This document shows, piece by piece, positions 26,074 to 32,102 of a DNA stretch of 43,710 nucleotides. Each line of letters begins with the position of its first letter. Position 1 is the first letter of the stretch. The position numbers and the translations under genes are program-made. Below the pieces are notes generated by a model. The model was given only the letters and a program-made list of their open reading frames with translations, was not told the DNA's origin and ran no database searches. The stretch is from positions 1 to 43,710 of the forward strand of contig JAGWGZ010000003.1 in assembly GCA_028867075.1 (NCBI GenBank). Direction: 5' to 3'. The DNA is from Nanobdellota archaeon (GTDB taxonomy: Archaea > Nanobdellota > Nanobdellia > Pacearchaeales > GW2011-AR1).

Positions 26074-26781
26074 ATGGGTAAACGAATAATACAGCAGGCA
26101 CGGGGACATGGAAGCTTCCCTTACAGGGTAAGAAAGCAGGCATTTAAATATAAGATACAATATCCAAGCAAACTAGAGGGGGATGGAATTGTTCTGAAAC
26201 TTCTCAATTCACTTGGCCATTTTGCACCTTTGGCAAAAATAAGGTATAATGGCGGAATATTTTATATCCCTGCATTTAAGGGGATGGTTGAGGGGCAGAA
26301 GATTAATTTTTCAAAATCAGGAGAGAATGTTGAAAATGGAAATATTCTTGCACTTAAGGAAATTCCGGTAAAAACACAGATATACAGCATAGAAGCACGA
26401 CCGGGGGACGGGGGAATTTTCATAAAAACTGCCGGAACATATGGGACGGTCAGCAAAGTACTCGGAGAGAGAATATTCATTTTAATGCCGTCAAAAAAAG
26501 AAAAAGAATTCAACCCCAACTGCCGTGCTGTTGTGGGAATAATCGCCGGTTCAGGACGATTGGAAAAACCGGTAGTAAAAGCAGGAAAAAAGTATTATAT
26601 GAAAAGATCCAAGGGCGGAAGAATGTGGCCCCGAACATCTGCAGTCAAGGTGAACGCAGTAGACCATTACTTCGGCTCTGGAAGAGGAAAGAATCCAAAG
26701 AGCAAGATTGCAAAGAGAAATGCACCTGCCGGAAGGAGAGTAGGTTTATTAAGACCAAGGAGGACAGGACATAAGAGATAA
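26074..26781 (+). CDS. rpl2: 50S ribosomal protein uL2
   Basis: MGKRI.QQARG.G, PGDGG, NAVDH.FG.G. Confidence 0.97.
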   Translation: MGKRIIQQARGHGSFPYRVRKQAFKYKIQYPSKLEGDGIVLKLLNSLGHFAPLAKIRYNGGIFYIPAFKGMVEGQKINFSKSGENVENGNILALKEIPVKTQIYSIEARPGDGGIFIKTAGTYGTVSKVLGERIFILMPSKKEKEFNPNCRAVVGIIAGSGRLEKPVVKAGKKYYMKRSKGGRMWPRTSAVKVNAVDHYFGSGRGKNPKSKIAKRNAPAGRRVGLLRPRRTGHKR

Positions 26782-26782
26782 A

Positions 26783-26830
26783 ATGAAAAATAAATTTTTC
26801 AAAATACAAAAATTAGGAGATTTTGCATAA
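26783..26830 (+). CDS. Putative 15-aa bridge/leader peptide [15 protein letters not shown]
   Basis: ATG 1 nt after the rpl2 stop; TAA overlaps the rps19 ATG; similar to 31651-31722. Confidence 0.55.
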
Positions 26831-27231
26831 TGGAAGCAGAAGTAAGGAAAAAAGAATTTATGTTCAGAGGAAAGACGCTAGAGGAGCTTAATGCACTTGA
26901 AGTCAGGGAATTTGCAAAATATCTAAAAGCGAGAGGAAGGCGGGCAGTCTTGAGACAGTTCAATGAAATTGAAAAGTTCATAATGAGGGCAAATAAAAAG
27001 CTCTCAAAAAACAAACCGATAAAAACACACAGTAGAGAAATCGTTGTGGTTCCGAAAATGGTTGGCATGAAGATACAAATTCACAATGGCAAAGGATTTG
27101 AGCCAGTTGAAATAACAGGAAATATGCTGGGCCATAGATTGGGAGAATTCGCACTGACAAGAACAAAAGTTAAGCATGGAAGTGCTGGTGTCGGAGCAAC
27201 TAAAGGAAGCAAATTTAAGTCGAAAAAGTAA
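26830..27231 (+). CDS. rps19: 30S ribosomal protein uS19
   Basis: [26 protein letters not shown]. Confidence 0.97.
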
Positions 27232-27233
27232 AA

Positions 27234-27770
27234 ATGGCAGAAGAAAAAATGGAAACAAAATTGGAAGAGAAAAAAGAAACAAAAAAGATAGCCGAAGCTC
27301 CTGAAAAAAAATCCGATGAAAAAAAGCCTGAAGCAAAGAAAGACATGAAGAAACCAAAAACAGAAGCTGTTGTCAATTCACTCAATGCCCATCTCTCGGC
27401 AAAAACAAGCGCGGCCGTATGCAAGTTTATTGTCGGAAAAACAATCAATCGGGCCATGGATGATTTGAAGGATGTCCTGTCAATGAAAAGAGCCATCCCT
27501 ATGAAGGGAGAAATCCCCCACAGGAAAGGAAAAGGCATGATGGCAGGCAGGTTCCCAAAAAATGCCTCAAAGCATTTCATCAAAATGTTAAAAACACTTG
27601 AAGGAAATGCAAATGTCAATGGGATTGAATCCCCGGTAATTGTCGAAGCAATAGCCAATATCGGAGAGAGACCATATGGGCAGTTTGGAAGAATAAGGAG
27701 AAAGAGAGCGCACATAAAGATAATTGCCAAGAATAAAATAAAGAAGGAAAGCAGGGAGAGGAAAAAGTAA
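27234..27770 (+). CDS. rpl22: 50S ribosomal protein uL22 with charged N-terminal extension
   Basis: PHRKG...GRFPKNAS, RAHIKII; operon position. Confidence 0.93.
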   Translation: MAEEKMETKLEEKKETKKIAEAPEKKSDEKKPEAKKDMKKPKTEAVVNSLNAHLSAKTSAAVCKFIVGKTINRAMDDLKDVLSMKRAIPMKGEIPHRKGKGMMAGRFPKNASKHFIKMLKTLEGNANVNGIESPVIVEAIANIGERPYGQFGRIRRKRAHIKIIAKNKIKKESRERKK

Positions 27771-27771
27771 G

Positions 27772-28440
27772 ATGGAAGAGAAAAGTGTAGTAAAGTTCAA
27801 GAAAGATGAATTTGCGATGAAAGAGTTCATAAAATATTCTCTTGGACGGGGAAAAGTCAGCAAGGTCCGAATAGAATATACTCCAGTGGGGGAGAAGATA
27901 ATAATCTCAACGCACAAAACCGGATTAGTCATCGGACGTGGCGGAGAGAGGATAGATGAACTTACAAGAATGCTCAAGACAAAATTCAAGCTTGAGAATC
28001 CGCACATAGAGATAGAAGAGATAAAACACCCTGAGTTTGATGCTCAGATAACTGCTGATGACATAGCTCTTGGCCTTGAAAAATTCGGACCTCTGAGATT
28101 CAAGGTAATTGCATACAGAATGCTCCAGAAGATAATAGACTCAAAAGCCCTCGGGGCAGAGATAAGATTGAGCGGAAAACTTCCAGGAGCACGTGCAAAG
28201 TCATGGAGATTCGCTCAAGGGTATCTGAAAAAGACGGGAGAGAGCGCAAGAGTTGTTGATCGGGCTCAGTCGCGTGCAGAAACAAGACCGGGAACCGTGG
28301 GCGTGAAAGTCGGAATCCTCCCCCCTAATGCAGTGATAAAGGACAAGATAATAATCAATGATGAACTGATCTCAAAGATGAAATCCAATTCCGAATTTGA
28401 AGAAGAGACAAAAACTAAACCAAAGAAAAACAGAAAATGA
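27772..28440 (+). CDS. rps3: 30S ribosomal protein uS3
   Basis: GLVIGRGG KH loop, SGKLPGARA, GYLKKTG. Confidence 0.97.
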   Translation: MEEKSVVKFKKDEFAMKEFIKYSLGRGKVSKVRIEYTPVGEKIIISTHKTGLVIGRGGERIDELTRMLKTKFKLENPHIEIEEIKHPEFDAQITADDIALGLEKFGPLRFKVIAYRMLQKIIDSKALGAEIRLSGKLPGARAKSWRFAQGYLKKTGESARVVDRAQSRAETRPGTVGVKVGILPPNAVIKDKIIINDELISKMKSNSEFEEETKTKPKKNRK

Positions 28441-28604
28441 AAATAAAAGACCTTAAAGGAATGAACAAAGAAGAAAGAGAAAGCCGCCTTAAAGAGCTGA
28501 GGCTTGAACTCATAAAATCAGAGATAAATGCTTCAAAATCAGGAAGTTCAAAGATAAAAAATATAAAAAAAACAATAGCACAAATACTCACACTCAACAA
28601 ATAA
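28437..28604 (+). CDS. rpl29: 50S ribosomal protein uL29, 55 aa; not in the ORF track
   Basis: MKIKDLKGMNKEERESRLKELRLELIK...IKNIKKTIAQILT; between rps3 and SUI1. Confidence 0.92.
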   Translation: MKIKDLKGMNKEERESRLKELRLELIKSEINASKSGSSKIKNIKKTIAQILTLNK

Positions 28605-28605
28605 A

Positions 28606-28893
28606 ATGAATATATGTCCAAAATGCGGATTGCCTTTAGAGGCATGCGTTTGCGAACAGATCGTGAAGGCCGACCAGAGGATACGGGTGACCCTTGACAA
28701 GAAGAAATATGGGAAAGTGGTCACGATTGTTTCCGGCTTTGACAAGGGCGTAGACATAAAAAAGGTCGCAAAAGACCTGAAGAATGAGCTCGCCTGCGGA
28801 GGAACCTTTGAGGGAAACAATGTTGAACTCCAGGGAGACCACATGAAGAGGATAAAACCTATCCTTGAAAAGATGGGCTTTAACATCGAATAA
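28606..28893 (+). CDS. sui1: Translation initiation factor aIF1 (SUI1)
   Basis: CPKCGLP, LACGGT, ELQGDH. Confidence 0.96.
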   Translation: MNICPKCGLPLEACVCEQIVKADQRIRVTLDKKKYGKVVTIVSGFDKGVDIKKVAKDLKNELACGGTFEGNNVELQGDHMKRIKPILEKMGFNIE

Positions 28894-28909
28894 GTTCGCA
28901 CAAAATAAG

Positions 28910-29266
28910 ATGAAAACAAAAATGAAAGAAACTGAGAAGAGAAAGCCGGAAGTACCGGAAAGAACTAATTGCAATGATATTAACTGCCCAATTCATGGGG
29001 CTCTCAGCCTGCGAGGAAGAACTTTCTCCGGAAAAGTGATAAAAAAGTTCCATAAAAGAATTGTAATCGAATTCGAGAGAACAGTTTATGTAAGAAAATA
29101 TGAGAGATATGCAAAAATGAAAACAAAGATTCATGCGCGCCTTCCGGACTGCATGAGCAATGAAGTGAACCTCGGAGATTATATTACAGTGAAGGAATGC
29201 AGGCCTTTGAGCAAGCTCATCCACTTTGCAGTTACTGAAAAGATAAAGGGGGTAAATGAAAAATGA
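28910..29266 (+). CDS. rps17: 30S ribosomal protein uS17
   Basis: C.D.NCP.HG.L..RG, KYERY, ECRPLSK; start 28910 or 28922. Confidence 0.95.
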   Translation: MKTKMKETEKRKPEVPERTNCNDINCPIHGALSLRGRTFSGKVIKKFHKRIVIEFERTVYVRKYERYAKMKTKIHARLPDCMSNEVNLGDYITVKECRPLSKLIHFAVTEKIKGVNEK

Positions 29267-29454
29267 AGATTAAAAATATTTTATGGATATTTGCATCGGT
29301 TATCCTCTTGTTAAGTACCATTATGAATATTAATATCATCGATAAAAATTCAACAACTTATTTGTTGTTAGGTTACATTGGTGCTGGATTAGCGATTATT
29401 ATCACAATTATGATTATAGGATCATTAATCAAAAATAAGGGAGAAATCAAATGA
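29263..29454 (+). CDS. 63-aa two-TM membrane protein inserted between rps17 and rpl14
   Basis: ATGA overlaps at both ends; two hydrophobic helices; AT-rich. Confidence 0.7.
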   Translation: MKIKNILWIFASVILLLSTIMNINIIDKNSTTYLLLGYIGAGLAIIITIMIIGSLIKNKGEIK

Positions 29455-29852
29455 AAGCAATAGGAGCAAGGACAACACGCGGTCTGAACATCGGAGCAGT
29501 TGTGACCTCTGCAGATAACAGCGGAGCAAGGATAGTGAGAATAGTCTCTGTTAAAAGATGGAAGGCAAAGAAAGGCAGGCAGGCAACCGCAAAGGTTGCG
29601 GATTGGGTAAAAGTGAGCGTAAGGAAAGGCGTCCCTGATGTCAGAGGAAAAGTCTTTGATGCTATCGTAATAAGGCAGAAAAAATCCTACAGAAGGCTCA
29701 ATGGGGAGAGAATAGCTTTTGAGGATAATGCGGTCGCATTGCTAAAGGATGAAAAAGGAAATCCAAAAGGAACACAAATTAAAGGACCAGTCGCACGAGA
29801 GGTCATGGAAAGGTGGCCGCAGGTCGCTAAGATTGCGCAGATGGTGTATTAA
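29451..29852 (+). CDS. rpl14: 50S ribosomal protein uL14
   Basis: ADNSGA, FEDNA, IKGPVARE. Confidence 0.97.
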   Translation: MKAIGARTTRGLNIGAVVTSADNSGARIVRIVSVKRWKAKKGRQATAKVADWVKVSVRKGVPDVRGKVFDAIVIRQKKSYRRLNGERIAFEDNAVALLKDEKGNPKGTQIKGPVAREVMERWPQVAKIAQMVY

Positions 29853-29853
29853 A

Positions 29854-30273
29854 ATGAAACAAAAATTTAACAAAAACTGGAAGTCAAGCAAACAACCGAG
29901 GAAACAGAGGAAATATTCAGCGAATACTCCCCTGCATCTGAAGAATAAAGCGATAAGCGCAAACCTCTCAAAAGAACTCAGAAAGAAACATGGCAGAAGA
30001 AGCCTGCCTCTCAGAAAAGGGGACAGGGTAATGATAATGACCGGGAAATTCAGGAAGAAAGAGGGCAAAATAACAAAAGTCCTCCTTAAGACTTCAAAGA
30101 TAATTATTGAGGGTATACAGATAAAGAAGAAAGATGGTTCAAAGGTAGACATAAAAATGGAGCCTTCAAACCTCAGGATAATTGAACTTAATTCAGAAGA
30201 TAAAAAAAGACTTAAAAACAGAGAAAAGAAAATGAAACCAGAGAAGAAACAGGAGGAAAAAAATGCATCTTAA
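29854..30273 (+). CDS. rpl24: 50S ribosomal protein uL24
   Basis: SKQPRKQRK, RKGD.V.IM.G, PSNL.I; start moved to ATG 29854. Confidence 0.95.
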   Translation: MKQKFNKNWKSSKQPRKQRKYSANTPLHLKNKAISANLSKELRKKHGRRSLPLRKGDRVMIMTGKFRKKEGKITKVLLKTSKIIIEGIQIKKKDGSKVDIKMEPSNLRIIELNSEDKKRLKNREKKMKPEKKQEEKNAS

Positions 30274-30928
30274 GAGAGAAGCAAGTCCTAAGAGCTGGCC
30301 AATCGAAAGAAAAGGCACGAAATATCTTGTAAGGCCAAATTACAATACTGAAAAGGGCGTGCCCATACTTATCATACTGAGAGATATGCTGAAATTTGCG
30401 GACAACAGGACGGAGGCAAAGAAAGCCCTGCATGCAAAACAGGTCCTGCTGAACAAAAAGGCCATATTTGATGACAGGGAAAATGCGCTTCTTTTTGACG
30501 TCATAACCCTCATACCTAAGAAAGAGAGCAACCTTCCCGAGAGGAATTACAGGATAACCATGAACAAAAATAAAAAATTTGACCTTGAAGAGATCAGTTC
30601 AGAAGATTCATGGCATAAGACTGCAAAAGTCATAAACAAGAAGAGCCTAAAAAAGAAGAGGGTGCAGATAAATCTCAGCGATGGAAGAAACTTCATTTCT
30701 GACATGAAATGCAATGTAAATGATTCTATGAGGATAAACCTTAAGGACAGGAAAATAGAGAAGTGCATTCCTCTTAAGGAAAATTCAGATGCATTTGTAT
30801 TTGCGGGAAAACATGCCGGAGAGAGCGGGGTAATTGAACAAATAGATAAGGGAATGAACCGGGTAAGACTTAACAGTGGGGGAAATCAGATTAACATATT
30901 AATTAAACAGCTTATGGTGCTGAAATGA
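30263..30928 (+). CDS. rps4e: 30S ribosomal protein eS4
   Basis: HLKR...P..WPI.RK, QINL.DGRN, GKHAG. Confidence 0.95.
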   Translation: MHLKREASPKSWPIERKGTKYLVRPNYNTEKGVPILIILRDMLKFADNRTEAKKALHAKQVLLNKKAIFDDRENALLFDVITLIPKKESNLPERNYRITMNKNKKFDLEEISSEDSWHKTAKVINKKSLKKKRVQINLSDGRNFISDMKCNVNDSMRINLKDRKIEKCIPLKENSDAFVFAGKHAGESGVIEQIDKGMNRVRLNSGGNQINILIKQLMVLK

Positions 30929-31422
30929 GTAAAGACATGAGGGAGATAAAGATAGAAAAGGTTGTACTTAGCGTCGGCGGGACAGAGGACAAACTCGAGA
31001 AAGGAATAAAGTTGCTGGAACTGATTACGGGGGCCAAGGCTTCAAAAATGAAGACACGAAAGAGAATCCCTTCCCTTAATGTGCGCCCGAAGCTGAATGT
31101 TGGCGCGGTCATAACCCTGAGGAGAGATACAGAAGCATTGCTAAAGAGATTGCTGGCATCTGTTGAAAACCGGCTTAGGAGGAAGCAAATCAGTGAGAAT
31201 ACATTTTCATTCGGAATCAAAGAGTACATAGAAATCCCGGGAATGGAATATCAGAGAGATTTGGGAATCCTCGGACTTGATGTAACTGTCACATTCTCCC
31301 GTGCAGGAAAGAGAATACAATTAAGAAAAGTTGGAAAGAAGATTCTTCCGGTAAAACAAAGAGTAAGCAGAGAAGAAATAATAAAATACATGGAGGAAAA
31401 GTTTCAGACAAATTTCAGATGA
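30925..31422 (+). CDS. rpl5: 50S ribosomal protein uL5
   Basis: [20 protein letters not shown]...GI.GLDV. Confidence 0.96.
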
Positions 31423-31649
31423 CGGCAAGTGATTGGAAGAAAACATTGAAGCAGTTGAAGAGCAAGCCAACAGTCATGGAAAAGTTTATCAGGCACAATA
31501 AACCAAAGGCGAGAAAGAACGGCGTTGCATCAAAGAAGTGTGAAAGATGCGGAAGATTTGGAGCCCATATAAAATCATACGGATTAAATTTATGCAGGCA
31601 ATGCTTCAGGGAAGTCGCTGAAGACATCGGCTTTAAGAAATATTCATAA
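31419..31649 (+). CDS. rps14: 30S ribosomal protein uS14 (Zn type)
   Basis: CERCG...[12 protein letters not shown]. Confidence 0.96.
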
Positions 31650-31650
31650 A

Positions 31651-31722
31651 ATGGAAAAAATAAATTTTTTAATGTCCTTGAATAAGAAATCCTGCGAGTA
31701 CAGGATCGGAGGTTTTGCATAA
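31651..31722 (+). CDS. Putative 23-aa bridge/leader peptide MEKINFLMSLNKKSCEYRIGGFA
   Basis: ATG 1 nt after the rps14 stop; TAA overlaps the rps8 ATG; hairpin 31689-31706; similar to 26783-26830. Confidence 0.55.
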   Translation: MEKINFLMSLNKKSCEYRIGGFA

Positions 31723-32102
31723 TGGCACAAGATACAGTAGCAGATGCACTGAATATGATAAAGAATGCCAAAAAGACTGGCAAGGAGAGCGTCAGGATAA
31801 CCAGGATTTCAAACCTCTTAATTGAGATACTCAAGATCATGAAACAGAAAGAAGCTGTAAAGAGATACAAGATAGACAGCAAAGGCAGAACTGTTGAAGT
31901 TGTCCTCGGAGATTTCATAGAATGCAGGGCAATAAAGCCAAGATTCAGCGCTGACAAAAGCCAGATAGAAAAATACAGAAGGAGATATCTGCCTGCAAGG
32001 AATCTTGGAACAATGATAATCTCAACAAACCAAGGACTAATGAGCCACGAGGAGGCAACGGAGAAAGGCGTCGGAGGAAGCCTTATCGCATATTTTTACT
32101 AA
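31722..32102 (+). CDS. rps8: 30S ribosomal protein uS8
   Basis: D.VADAL..I.NA, IKPRF, STNQGLMSH.EA...GG.LIAY. Confidence 0.97.
   Translation: MAQDTVADALNMIKNAKKTGKESVRITRISNLLIEILKIMKQKEAVKRYKIDSKGRTVEVVLGDFIECRAIKPRFSADKSQIEKYRRRYLPARNLGTMIISTNQGLMSHEEATEKGVGGSLIAYFY

Follow-up and report, generated by a model that had tools for sequence, protein, structure and literature searches.

Start-codon insertions with a kept reading frame in the ribosomal-protein operon of a DPANN archaeon: a dispersed repeat family, probably of the MIRU kind

Rickettsia palindromic elements (RPEs) insert in frame, leave the host reading frame intact and become part of the host protein. The interspersed repetitive units of mycobacteria (MIRUs) are described, in part of PMC12548453, as mobile elements that insert at start codons and carry an internal open reading frame (ORF) coupled to the gene at -4 nucleotides (nt). 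A section of PMC3184786 gives them a length of 40-100 bp, 40-50 copies, ORFs that overlap the adjacent genes, empty and filled sites and 4-nt direct repeats. In the leaderless bicistronic design (BCD) of Corynebacterium glutamicum the AUG of the fore-cistron stands at the transcript start, and both fore-cistron translation and a Shine-Dalgarno (SD) motif are needed (PMC10367133, in part). The window analysed here is the whole 43,710-nt stretch of contig JAGWGZ010000003.1 (positions 1 to 43,710, forward strand; assembly GCA_028867075.1) of a Nanobdellota archaeon, a DPANN archaeon as indicated by its archaeal 16S rRNA, S19e and L32e-type operon of archaeal ribosomal proteins. Its rpl3-rpl15 gene run contains two unannotated mini-ORFs, one between rpl2 and rps19 and one between rps14 and rps8. 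We found that these two spacers are two copies of a short dispersed repeat of Pacearchaeota/Woesearchaeota-type DPANN archaea, which sits exactly at start codons and in which the reading frame is kept and the peptide is not.

A sequence-only reading of the window had described the two ORFs as filling their spacers exactly, and this held for their sequence, coordinates, opening and stop/start overlap. The first ORF occupies 26783-26830 (ATG at 26783, TAA at 26828-26830) and the second, which translates as MEKINFLMSLNKKSCEYRIGGFA followed by the stop, occupies 31651-31722 (TAA at 31720-31722), both on the forward strand. Each begins one base past the TAA of the gene before it (TAA-A-ATG, after rpl2 and rps14), and its own TAA overlaps the ATG of the next gene, rps19 for copy 1 and rps8 for copy 2. 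The ORF table also bore out the earlier statement that the spacers are the two largest gaps of the rpl3-rpl15 run (48 nt and 72 nt), all others being at most 2 nt or overlaps. The ATG-to-ATG distances are 47 nt in copy 1 and 71 nt in copy 2, and because both equal 2 mod 3 the first ATG is in frame with the TAA of the TAATG junction. The two copies share the 3' end GGAG(A/G)TTTTGCATAATG (26816-26832 and 31708-31724), identical at 16 of 17 positions as first reported; taken alone, this 17-mer is the weaker evidence, since at up to 3 mismatches it gave 2 matches in the window versus 0.42 expected, and 10 of 100 shuffles reached 2. The block AAAAATAAATTTTT after the ATG is likewise present in both spacers, and allowing one mismatch it has 4 matches in the window versus 0.53 expected, a number that none of 100 shuffles reached. 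It starts at offset +3 relative to the ATG in one spacer and at +5 in the other, which places it in different codon phases.

The 12-mer TTTTGCATAATG occurs nine times in this genome (G000, 575 kb; reversed control 0), always on an ATG from which an ORF of 16 to 142 amino acids (aa) runs, and seven of these nine ORFs have at least 92 aa. A nhmmer search of G000 with five seeds gave four copies of about 75 nt at E ≤ 8.8e-16 and the shorter rps19 copy. The compared set consisted of 41 genomes, including 12 congeners and members of other genera. In this set the 12-mer was counted 10 times in G011, 6 in G010, 4 in G007 and once in G004; it was absent from 8 of the 12 congeners and present zero to two times in other genera, with 0-1 occurrences of the reversed control over the 41 genomes. 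The same picture was obtained with a model of the 36-nt core (R1), which had matches in 10 of the 41 genomes. This core model, together with protein-anchored junctions, replaced a DNA search of the 41 relatives with the 80-nt spacer, which had returned mostly short low-complexity matches. G000 holds nine core copies and three congeners hold 4-12 copies each, with a unit length of 32-107 nt.

Each copy has an ATG at its start, an embedded SD motif (GGAG) and TTTTGCATAATG at its end, and the 3' junction was TAATG (-1) in every copy collected. Copy 1 (26783-26832) is of a short type and consists of a 15-codon mini-ORF, stop included in its coordinates, and the new rps19 start (26830-26832); core model R1 matches it at 26797-26832 with E 7.9e-6. 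Its GGAG (26816-26819) lies within the mini-ORF, 10 nt 5' of the rps19 ATG, and its invariant 3' end (26821-26832) closes with the TAATG overlap at 26828-26832. Copy 2 (31651-31724) is a diverged long-type copy with a 23-codon mini-ORF and the new rps8 start at 31722-31724 (E 8.8e-16 with nhmmer, 7.5e-7 with the core model); its SD-like motif is GGAGG (31708-31712) and its 3' end lies at 31713-31724, with the TAATG overlap at 31720-31724. According to Pfam, the genes behind the G000 copies encode S19, S8, S19e, a cupredoxin-like protein and products with weak matches to Pop5 and to a Zn-ribbon, while the gene for GyrA lies behind a degenerate copy. The idea of a lineage-specific, duplicated cassette is thus correct in that the copies are related and lineage-specific, and has to be widened in that they belong to a dispersed family that is not private to the ribosomal operon. 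Control of entry into ribosomal-protein sub-blocks, the role suggested for the pair, does not agree with this range of downstream genes.

When one genome of each prokaryotic species was scanned with the pattern, 109 stretches with the family were detected in public metagenome-assembled genomes, and the 80 that were listed come, by our own count, from at least 35 assemblies. Among the matches listed the labels of the holders are Pacearchaeota, Woesearchaeota, Nanoarchaeota and 'archaeon', with Omnitrophota in one case. The latter label belongs to two element-bearing contigs (L143 and L189) of one assembly titled Omnitrophota bacterium, all other listed holders being labelled archaea, and it is probably a labelling or binning matter.

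Junctions of the relatives were extracted via tblastn anchors. The rps14-rps8 junction reads TAAAATGGCA, TAAAAATGGCA or TAATG(G/T)CA in 11 of the 11 congeners with data, the ATG in it being the rps8 start, and at the rpl2-rps19 junction the ATG lies 0-3 nt past the stop in 10 of 10. Since rps14 and rps8 are joined directly in all of the former and rpl2 and rps19 nearly abut in all of the latter, both spacers are lineage-specific insertions. The congener junctions further identify the TAA-A-ATG of each mini-ORF as the ancestral junction, with 71 nt (over the empty junction TAAAATGGCA) or 47 nt now separating the old start from the new one. The first ATG of copy 1 (26783-26785) lies where the ancestral rps19 start codon stood, as relatives have TAAAATG followed directly by rps19 codons, and the first ATG of copy 2 (31651-31653) lies where the rps8 start codon stood; the opening is therefore not a designed feature. 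The genes upstream of the insertions, on the same forward strand, are rpl2 (26074-26781, by tblastn to relatives) and rps14 (31419-31649, PF00253), and those with displaced starts are rps19 (26830-27231, PF00203) and rps8 (31722-32102, PF00410), the products S19, S8 and S14 being confirmed by Pfam.

Copies were found elsewhere in the same gene cluster in other genomes, between rpl4 and rpl23 in G007, between rpl23 and rpl2 in G024 and between rpl19e and rpl18 in G001. The G024 copy is nearly identical to the rps19 copy of G000, though it comes from another genus. In the reverse test we took 18 element-bearing genes of G007, G010 and G011; 16 of them have an orthologue in G000, at 15 distinct sites, and all of these sites are empty. 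Inspected by eye, 14 of the 15 empty sites show a TATA-like box 18-25 nt 5' of the gene's ATG, without an SD motif. The filled sites show the same TATA-like box at the same distance, now measured to the first ATG of the element. The same box at the same distance in empty and filled sites puts the element precisely on the start codon, each of its ends bearing an ATG, and either of the two ATGs at a filled site may be the original one. Element-bearing positions differ between close relatives. Presence and absence at orthologous sites, together with near-identical copies in different genera, suggest that the element is mobile now or was so formerly. Among the 93 copies with a downstream ORF of at least 40 aa, 23 precede a gene of the rpl3-secY cluster, which is an enrichment because this cluster has about 25 of about 600 genes; part of it reflects inherited insertions. 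These copies are spread over 13 different genes (six before rpl2, four before rps3, the others once or twice), and rps19 or rps8 is not singled out.

Unrelated inserts were observed at the same two junctions in four more distant relatives, namely G014 (L024), G017 (L028), G020 (L026/L057) and G022 (L027/L056). When their frames were read by eye, these inserts too were filled exactly by an ORF running from the old junction to the next start, with 95, 59, 18 and 19 codons between rps14 and rps8 and approximately 108 and 91 codons between rpl2 and rps19. A direct repeat of 15 nt, TAAAATGGAAATAAA, stands on both sides of the G022 insert. The unrelated inserts suggest a general rule by which 'bridging' inserts alone survive in this operon.

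The reading frame was analysed in a set of 86 copies that the pattern scan had collected without regard to the 5' part or the frame. An ATG 20-110 nt upstream with a frame open to the TAA of TAATG was present in 76 of the 86, versus 8 and 11 in the two control frames, and the ATG triplets in the same interval numbered 96 in this frame versus 29 and 31 in the others. In a larger set of 110 copies, in which orthologous insertions in related metagenome-assembled genomes (MAGs) were counted separately and duplicates were removed by exact 150-nt context only, 92 hold a mini-ORF, that is, a first ATG in frame and open to the TAA. The ATG-to-ATG distances of these mini-ORFs form twenty length classes (32, 41, 44, 47, 50, 53, 56, 59, 62, 65, 68, 71, 74, 77, 86, 89, 92, 95, 98 and 107 nt), all equal to 2 mod 3, so that length changes by multiples of three only. 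The most conserved internal block of the family, the core ATACAAAA, is read as ATA-CAA in 39 copies, including copy 1 (26804-26811, I-Q), as xAT-ACA-AAA in 31 and as xxA-TAC-AAA in 22. Compensated frameshifts, which alter most of the peptide, were detected between G000 C7 and G011 L092 (-1 near the 5' end, +1 near the SD), between G010 L103 and G011 L109 (-1 and -2) and between the G024 and G000 rps19 copies (+1 and -1). With the core read in all three frames and lengths in steps of three, the frame is kept and the peptide is not, and conservation of the peptide was rejected. In the G001 copy the TAA is replaced by CAA, and the frame closes at the next possible place, in an ATGA overlap. Comparison of the copies thus argues that the reading frame with its stop overlapping the next ATG is a feature under selection. 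A different arrangement was seen in the public MAG contigs L166, L169 and L214, where tandem 27-nt units (GATACAAAACAGGAAATTTTGCATAA-N-G) run in frame into the downstream gene with no TAATG end; being multiples of three, these units would lengthen the N-terminus of the downstream protein.

The starts of the 92 mini-ORFs fall into several contexts. The stop of an upstream ORF of at least 60 codons is abutted or overlapped by 52 of them, with a spacing of -4 in 15, -1 in 3, 0 in 2, +1 in 20 and +2 to +5 in 12; in another 22 a TATA-like box stands between -33 and -24, 3 come after a preceding unit and the remaining 15 are unclassified. How genes of the host start was estimated from crude gene calls (602 ORFs of G000). 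In the 264 genes that have 60 nt or more upstream, TATA-like hexamers have their peak between -30 and -26 relative to the ATG (228, versus about 25 for each bin of 5 nt). A GGAG or GAGG between -16 and -5 was present in 8% of these genes, in 4% of genes whose gap is 6-40 nt and in 23% of genes whose gap is at most 5 nt. The 16S rRNA ends in GGATCACCTCCT and keeps the CCUCC anti-SD. By these figures the genes of G000 appear to be leaderless and tightly coupled, the SD motif being mostly a feature of junctions, a pattern that part of PMC6728339 also reports for haloarchaea and one crenarchaeal group.

The units also form chains. In L160 at least five identical units of 50 nt stand between a long-type copy and a large gene; every unit is an ORF of 16 codons, and TAATG links it to the next. 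Smaller chains were found in G011 C17 (two tandem units) and in G000 C22 (two tandem 3' cores, with one unit between them), and the 27-nt arrays described above are tandem as well. At G000 C18:13297-13500 a 7-codon mini-ORF (MKNRSFA and stop) precedes an out-of-frame unit that holds a palindromic insert, CGCGAT...ATCGCG, and a similar palindrome, GCGATTATTCATCGCGAAGGAAAAA, lies in a degenerate copy before a GAPDH-like gene (C18:60200-60282). The CGCGAT palindrome may represent another small repeat lying within the first one.

Starting from the observed family, its distribution, its empty and filled sites, its position at the start codon and its frame kept without a peptide, we propose as the probable explanation that the element is a start-codon insertion cassette similar to a MIRU, its mini-ORF handing ribosomes on to the gene by termination-reinitiation. 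The first ATG keeps the context of the old start and would be used as the old start was, either leaderless or coupled. At the heads of operons it stands at promoter distance from a TATA-like box, as in a leaderless architecture, and within operons it abuts or overlaps the upstream stop. Ribosomes due to start the gene would thus begin at the mini-ORF, translate 10-35 codons through the insert, meet the GGAG a few codons before its end, terminate at the UAA of UAAUG and restart on the real gene one base back. The insert would thereby be near-neutral for expression of the target gene, and under the proposal this near-neutrality is what allows the repeat to persist and spread even in ribosomal-protein operons. 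In Haloferax volcanii an untranslated gap of about 20 nt abolishes reinitiation and the last 15 nt of the upstream ORF suffice for it (PMC10666635, in part), and the portion of PMC6728339 cited here states that the SD motif serves no de novo initiation in this species and contributes to reinitiation to a varying degree, reinitiation being its role in archaea rich in leaderless transcripts. Given such limits of distance, an insert of 47-71 nt at a coupled or leaderless start would silence the gene unless it were translated up to the new start, and being readable up to the new start is exactly the property that the family conserves. The translational relay of the sequence-only reading fits in this respect, as the frame that ends at the stop/ATG overlap is open in 92 of 110 copies, while translation itself is a prediction.

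Several observations weigh against this explanation or limit it. Translation of the mini-ORF, the hand-over by reinitiation and a transcript start at the first ATG are all deduced from sequence. The 110 copies are not independent events. Eighteen of them have no open in-frame ATG, and these include frameshifted copies (distances of 48 or 49 nt), copies with a replaced ATG and the 27-nt tandem units reading into the gene; in G000 the ATG is replaced by AAG in the S19e and Pop5-like copies, and one C18 copy is out of frame. Such exceptions imply that the relay is not indispensable and that the SD motif may suffice for some genes. The mini-ORF is retained equally often with a nearby upstream ORF (73 of 86 copies) and without one (19 of 24), hence selection for coupling specifically is not demonstrable. 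On visual inspection, stops are scarce inside the element whichever frame is read, which makes its being 'open' less telling than the statistic on ATG phase. On the side of mobility, no transposase was found, in work that included no search aimed at a transposase or parent element; the terminal inverted repeats are imperfect (ATGAAAAAT versus the reverse complement of ATTTTGCAT, 8 of 9 positions) and occur only in subfamilies beginning with MKN; and no target duplication was seen at the element ends past ATG, sometimes AATG. Finally, the relay itself does not explain why ATACAAAA and TTTTGCAT are conserved as nucleotides, for which a weak hairpin, CAAAA(U)/(A)UUUUG with GGAG in its loop, may account.

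The same mechanics could serve the host. The cassette would then be more than a tolerated selfish insert and would be maintained for raising or insulating translation of the following gene, by turning an SD-less leaderless or coupled start into an SD-assisted reinitiation start as an engineered bicistronic design does. The element does supply an SD where this motif is rare at gene starts (8% and 4%, versus 23% at tight junctions), 23 of 93 copies precede genes of the highly expressed rpl3-secY cluster, with its roughly 25 of 600 genes, and in some copies the SD lies in a hairpin loop. In C. glutamicum, moreover, all leaderless bicistronic designs tested out-express monocistronic ones, with the need for fore-cistron translation and SD given above (PMC10367133, in part). 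Such a benefit to the host is nevertheless unlikely to be what maintains the family, since positions vary among close relatives, 8 of 12 congeners are without the element by the 12-mer count, the target genes have nothing in common and amplification to at least five tandem units resembles the dynamics of a repeat, not tuning. A still less probable account makes the peptide itself regulatory, a leader or microprotein that stalls ribosomes, for example at an end of the form ...G-D/G-F-A, or acts in trans. Many copies do share an N-terminal MKNKFF or MTEN... and a C-terminal ...FA before the stop, and regulation by upstream ORFs is common in leaderless-rich bacteria (PMC12548453, in part). We regard this account as very improbable, because three reading frames are used for the middle of the peptide, the lengths range from 10 to 35 codons and the targets are unrelated and differ between sister genomes. 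The F-A-stop end, moreover, is dictated by the invariant nucleotides TTTTGCATAA. A test of third positions in TTT-GCA is uninformative for loci fetched by the exact 12-mer, and the five variants obtained by model search without fixing the 12-mer, which alone are usable, read GTA, GGA (three times) and CAA for the stop; none is changed at a third codon position and all are non-synonymous. The nascent-peptide mechanism put forward earlier is not supported by these results.

Another account places the function in the RNA or DNA and makes the mini-ORF a by-product; the element would then be an internal promoter, a site for processing or protein binding, or a hairpin displaying AGGAG. The blocks ATACAAAA and TTTTGCATA and an AAAAAT/ATTTTT palindrome are indeed conserved as nucleotides whatever the frame. 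In copy 1 the 5' palindrome is GAAAAAT-AA-ATTTTTC (26785-26800, helix 1), found also in long-type copies with a 5-nt spacer, and in copy 2 it is AAAAAAT-AA-ATTTTTT (31655-31670). RNAalifold proposed three small hairpins; an A x C mismatch beside the CAAAA/UUUUG stem is changed to C-G in two G011 copies and to A-U in one G007 copy, and three copies fold better than shuffles (z -1.8 to -3.2). The consensus fold is weak, however (-7.1 kcal/mol, of which the covariation term is -0.75), and its stems are nearly invariant, that of helix 1 included, and so give no evidence of covariation. The two window copies do not differ from shuffles (z = -0.13 for copy 1 and -0.05 for copy 2). In copy 2, where GTACAGGA takes the place of the core ATACAAAA, the inverted repeat ATCCTG-CGAGTA-CAGGAT reported earlier as a hairpin exists at 31689-31706 and lies outside the minimum-energy fold. 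Rfam had no match at E ≤ 1 in window positions 26500-32000, and a family core was found within 60 nt upstream of none of the 25 G000 tRNA genes. As for a promoter, the TATA-like boxes are outside the repeat and retained from the empty sites, and short-type copies are without any A/T box. The block AAAAATAAATTTTT was considered as an internal promoter and rejected, as its distance to the gene's ATG differs by 24 nt between the copies, short-type relatives do not have it and the real TATA-like boxes stand outside the repeat. An element acting as nucleic acid only gives no reason for lengths of 2 mod 3 across 20 classes or for 3:1:1 framing of ATG triplets, and we consider it improbable.

A further block of about 45 nt was noticed in G000 before three tRNA genes, tRNA-Ser at C7:33867(-), tRNA-Glu at C10:7195(+) and tRNA-Ser at C24:9284(+). 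Its start resembles the 5' part of the following tRNA, and it holds a hairpin, CAAAUC-AGGAAG-AUUUG. A duplicated 5' half of a tRNA is one candidate identity for this block, an unusual intron or leader another. The motif upstream of the tRNA genes is distinct from the family, of which the intergenic region beside endA shows no copy either.

Should the start-codon insertion cassette with its ribosome relay prove true, the principle of the MIRU, a repeat that survives by relaying ribosomes across itself, would extend from mycobacteria to archaea, and two odd unannotated spacers in a core operon would be accounted for. The same cassette would work at leaderless promoter-proximal starts and at coupled internal ones, in a genome that otherwise hardly uses SD motifs. 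More than 100 natural variants with 2-mod-3 lengths and a scrambled peptide would then be strong comparative evidence for termination-reinitiation in these uncultured archaea. It would also follow that in DPANN genomes an entire category of tiny cistrons escapes gene callers. The variants could offer designs for context-independent expression cassettes, and polymorphism in presence and copy number could provide strain markers for metagenomes, comparable to MIRU variable-number tandem repeats in tuberculosis typing. A bolder version, which we hold to be rather doubtful, is that of a self-propagating 'natural bicistronic design' in Pacearchaeota/Woesearchaeota-type DPANN archaea, a portable initiation module with start-codon targeting by a mechanism new to archaea, a mini-cistron of its own that captures leaderless or coupled initiation and an SD-assisted UAAUG restart, which the host would exploit to boost or insulate core genes such as those for ribosomal proteins. 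On that version the natural variation of the copies in length, frame and SD context would provide a mutational series for studying reinitiation in archaea that cannot be cultured alone.

In literature searches of open-access text we found no description of such an element in archaea or in the DPANN group. The earlier statement that none was known thus holds for this archaeal family, and the kind of element was already familiar from the mycobacterial MIRUs in the parts of PMC12548453 and PMC3184786 cited above. Like MITEs (miniature inverted-repeat transposable elements) and RPEs, the units are small non-autonomous repeats tolerated in compact genomes (for MITEs, part of PMC3184786). They differ from RPEs in that the element stays a separate cistron before the host protein gene, and from MITEs in that clear terminal inverted repeats, target duplications or a parent insertion sequence are not evident, the parent element not having been searched for. 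With coupled pairs of protein genes they share overlaps of -1 or -4, an SD in the upstream ORF and a steep loss of coupling with untranslated distance; the upstream partner in such pairs is a real protein gene, whereas here it is a repeat-borne frame of 10-35 codons without a conserved peptide. The short fore-cistron, the SD in its 3' end and the TAATG overlap are also those of the synthetic bicistronic design, most of all of its leaderless version. That design is engineered and bacterial, whereas the present cassette is archaeal and natural, occurs in repeated copies, seems to propagate itself and has a predicted function.

The comparison with MIRUs goes furthest. Both are short dispersed repeats at gene junctions and start codons of operons, with empty and filled orthologous sites, and both live in hosts with many leaderless transcripts. 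Both occur in tandem, MIRUs as loci for typing by tandem copies and the present units as the arrays found across genomes. Their ORF ends overlap or abut the flanking genes, as in the 52 of 92 starts at a spacing of -4 to +5, which include both window copies. The present family is set apart from the MIRUs, as these are described, by its archaeal host and its A/T-rich sequence. Its hand-over is TAATG (-1) where that of MIRUs is at -4, and it has an explicit GGAG within the ORF. It numbers 4-12 copies per genome, not 40-50, and shows no 4-nt direct repeats past ATG/AATG. Many of its copies stand at promoter-proximal leaderless starts, not solely inside operons. Without claiming membership in the mycobacterial MIRU family proper, we regard the family as a likely archaeal variant of the MIRU kind.

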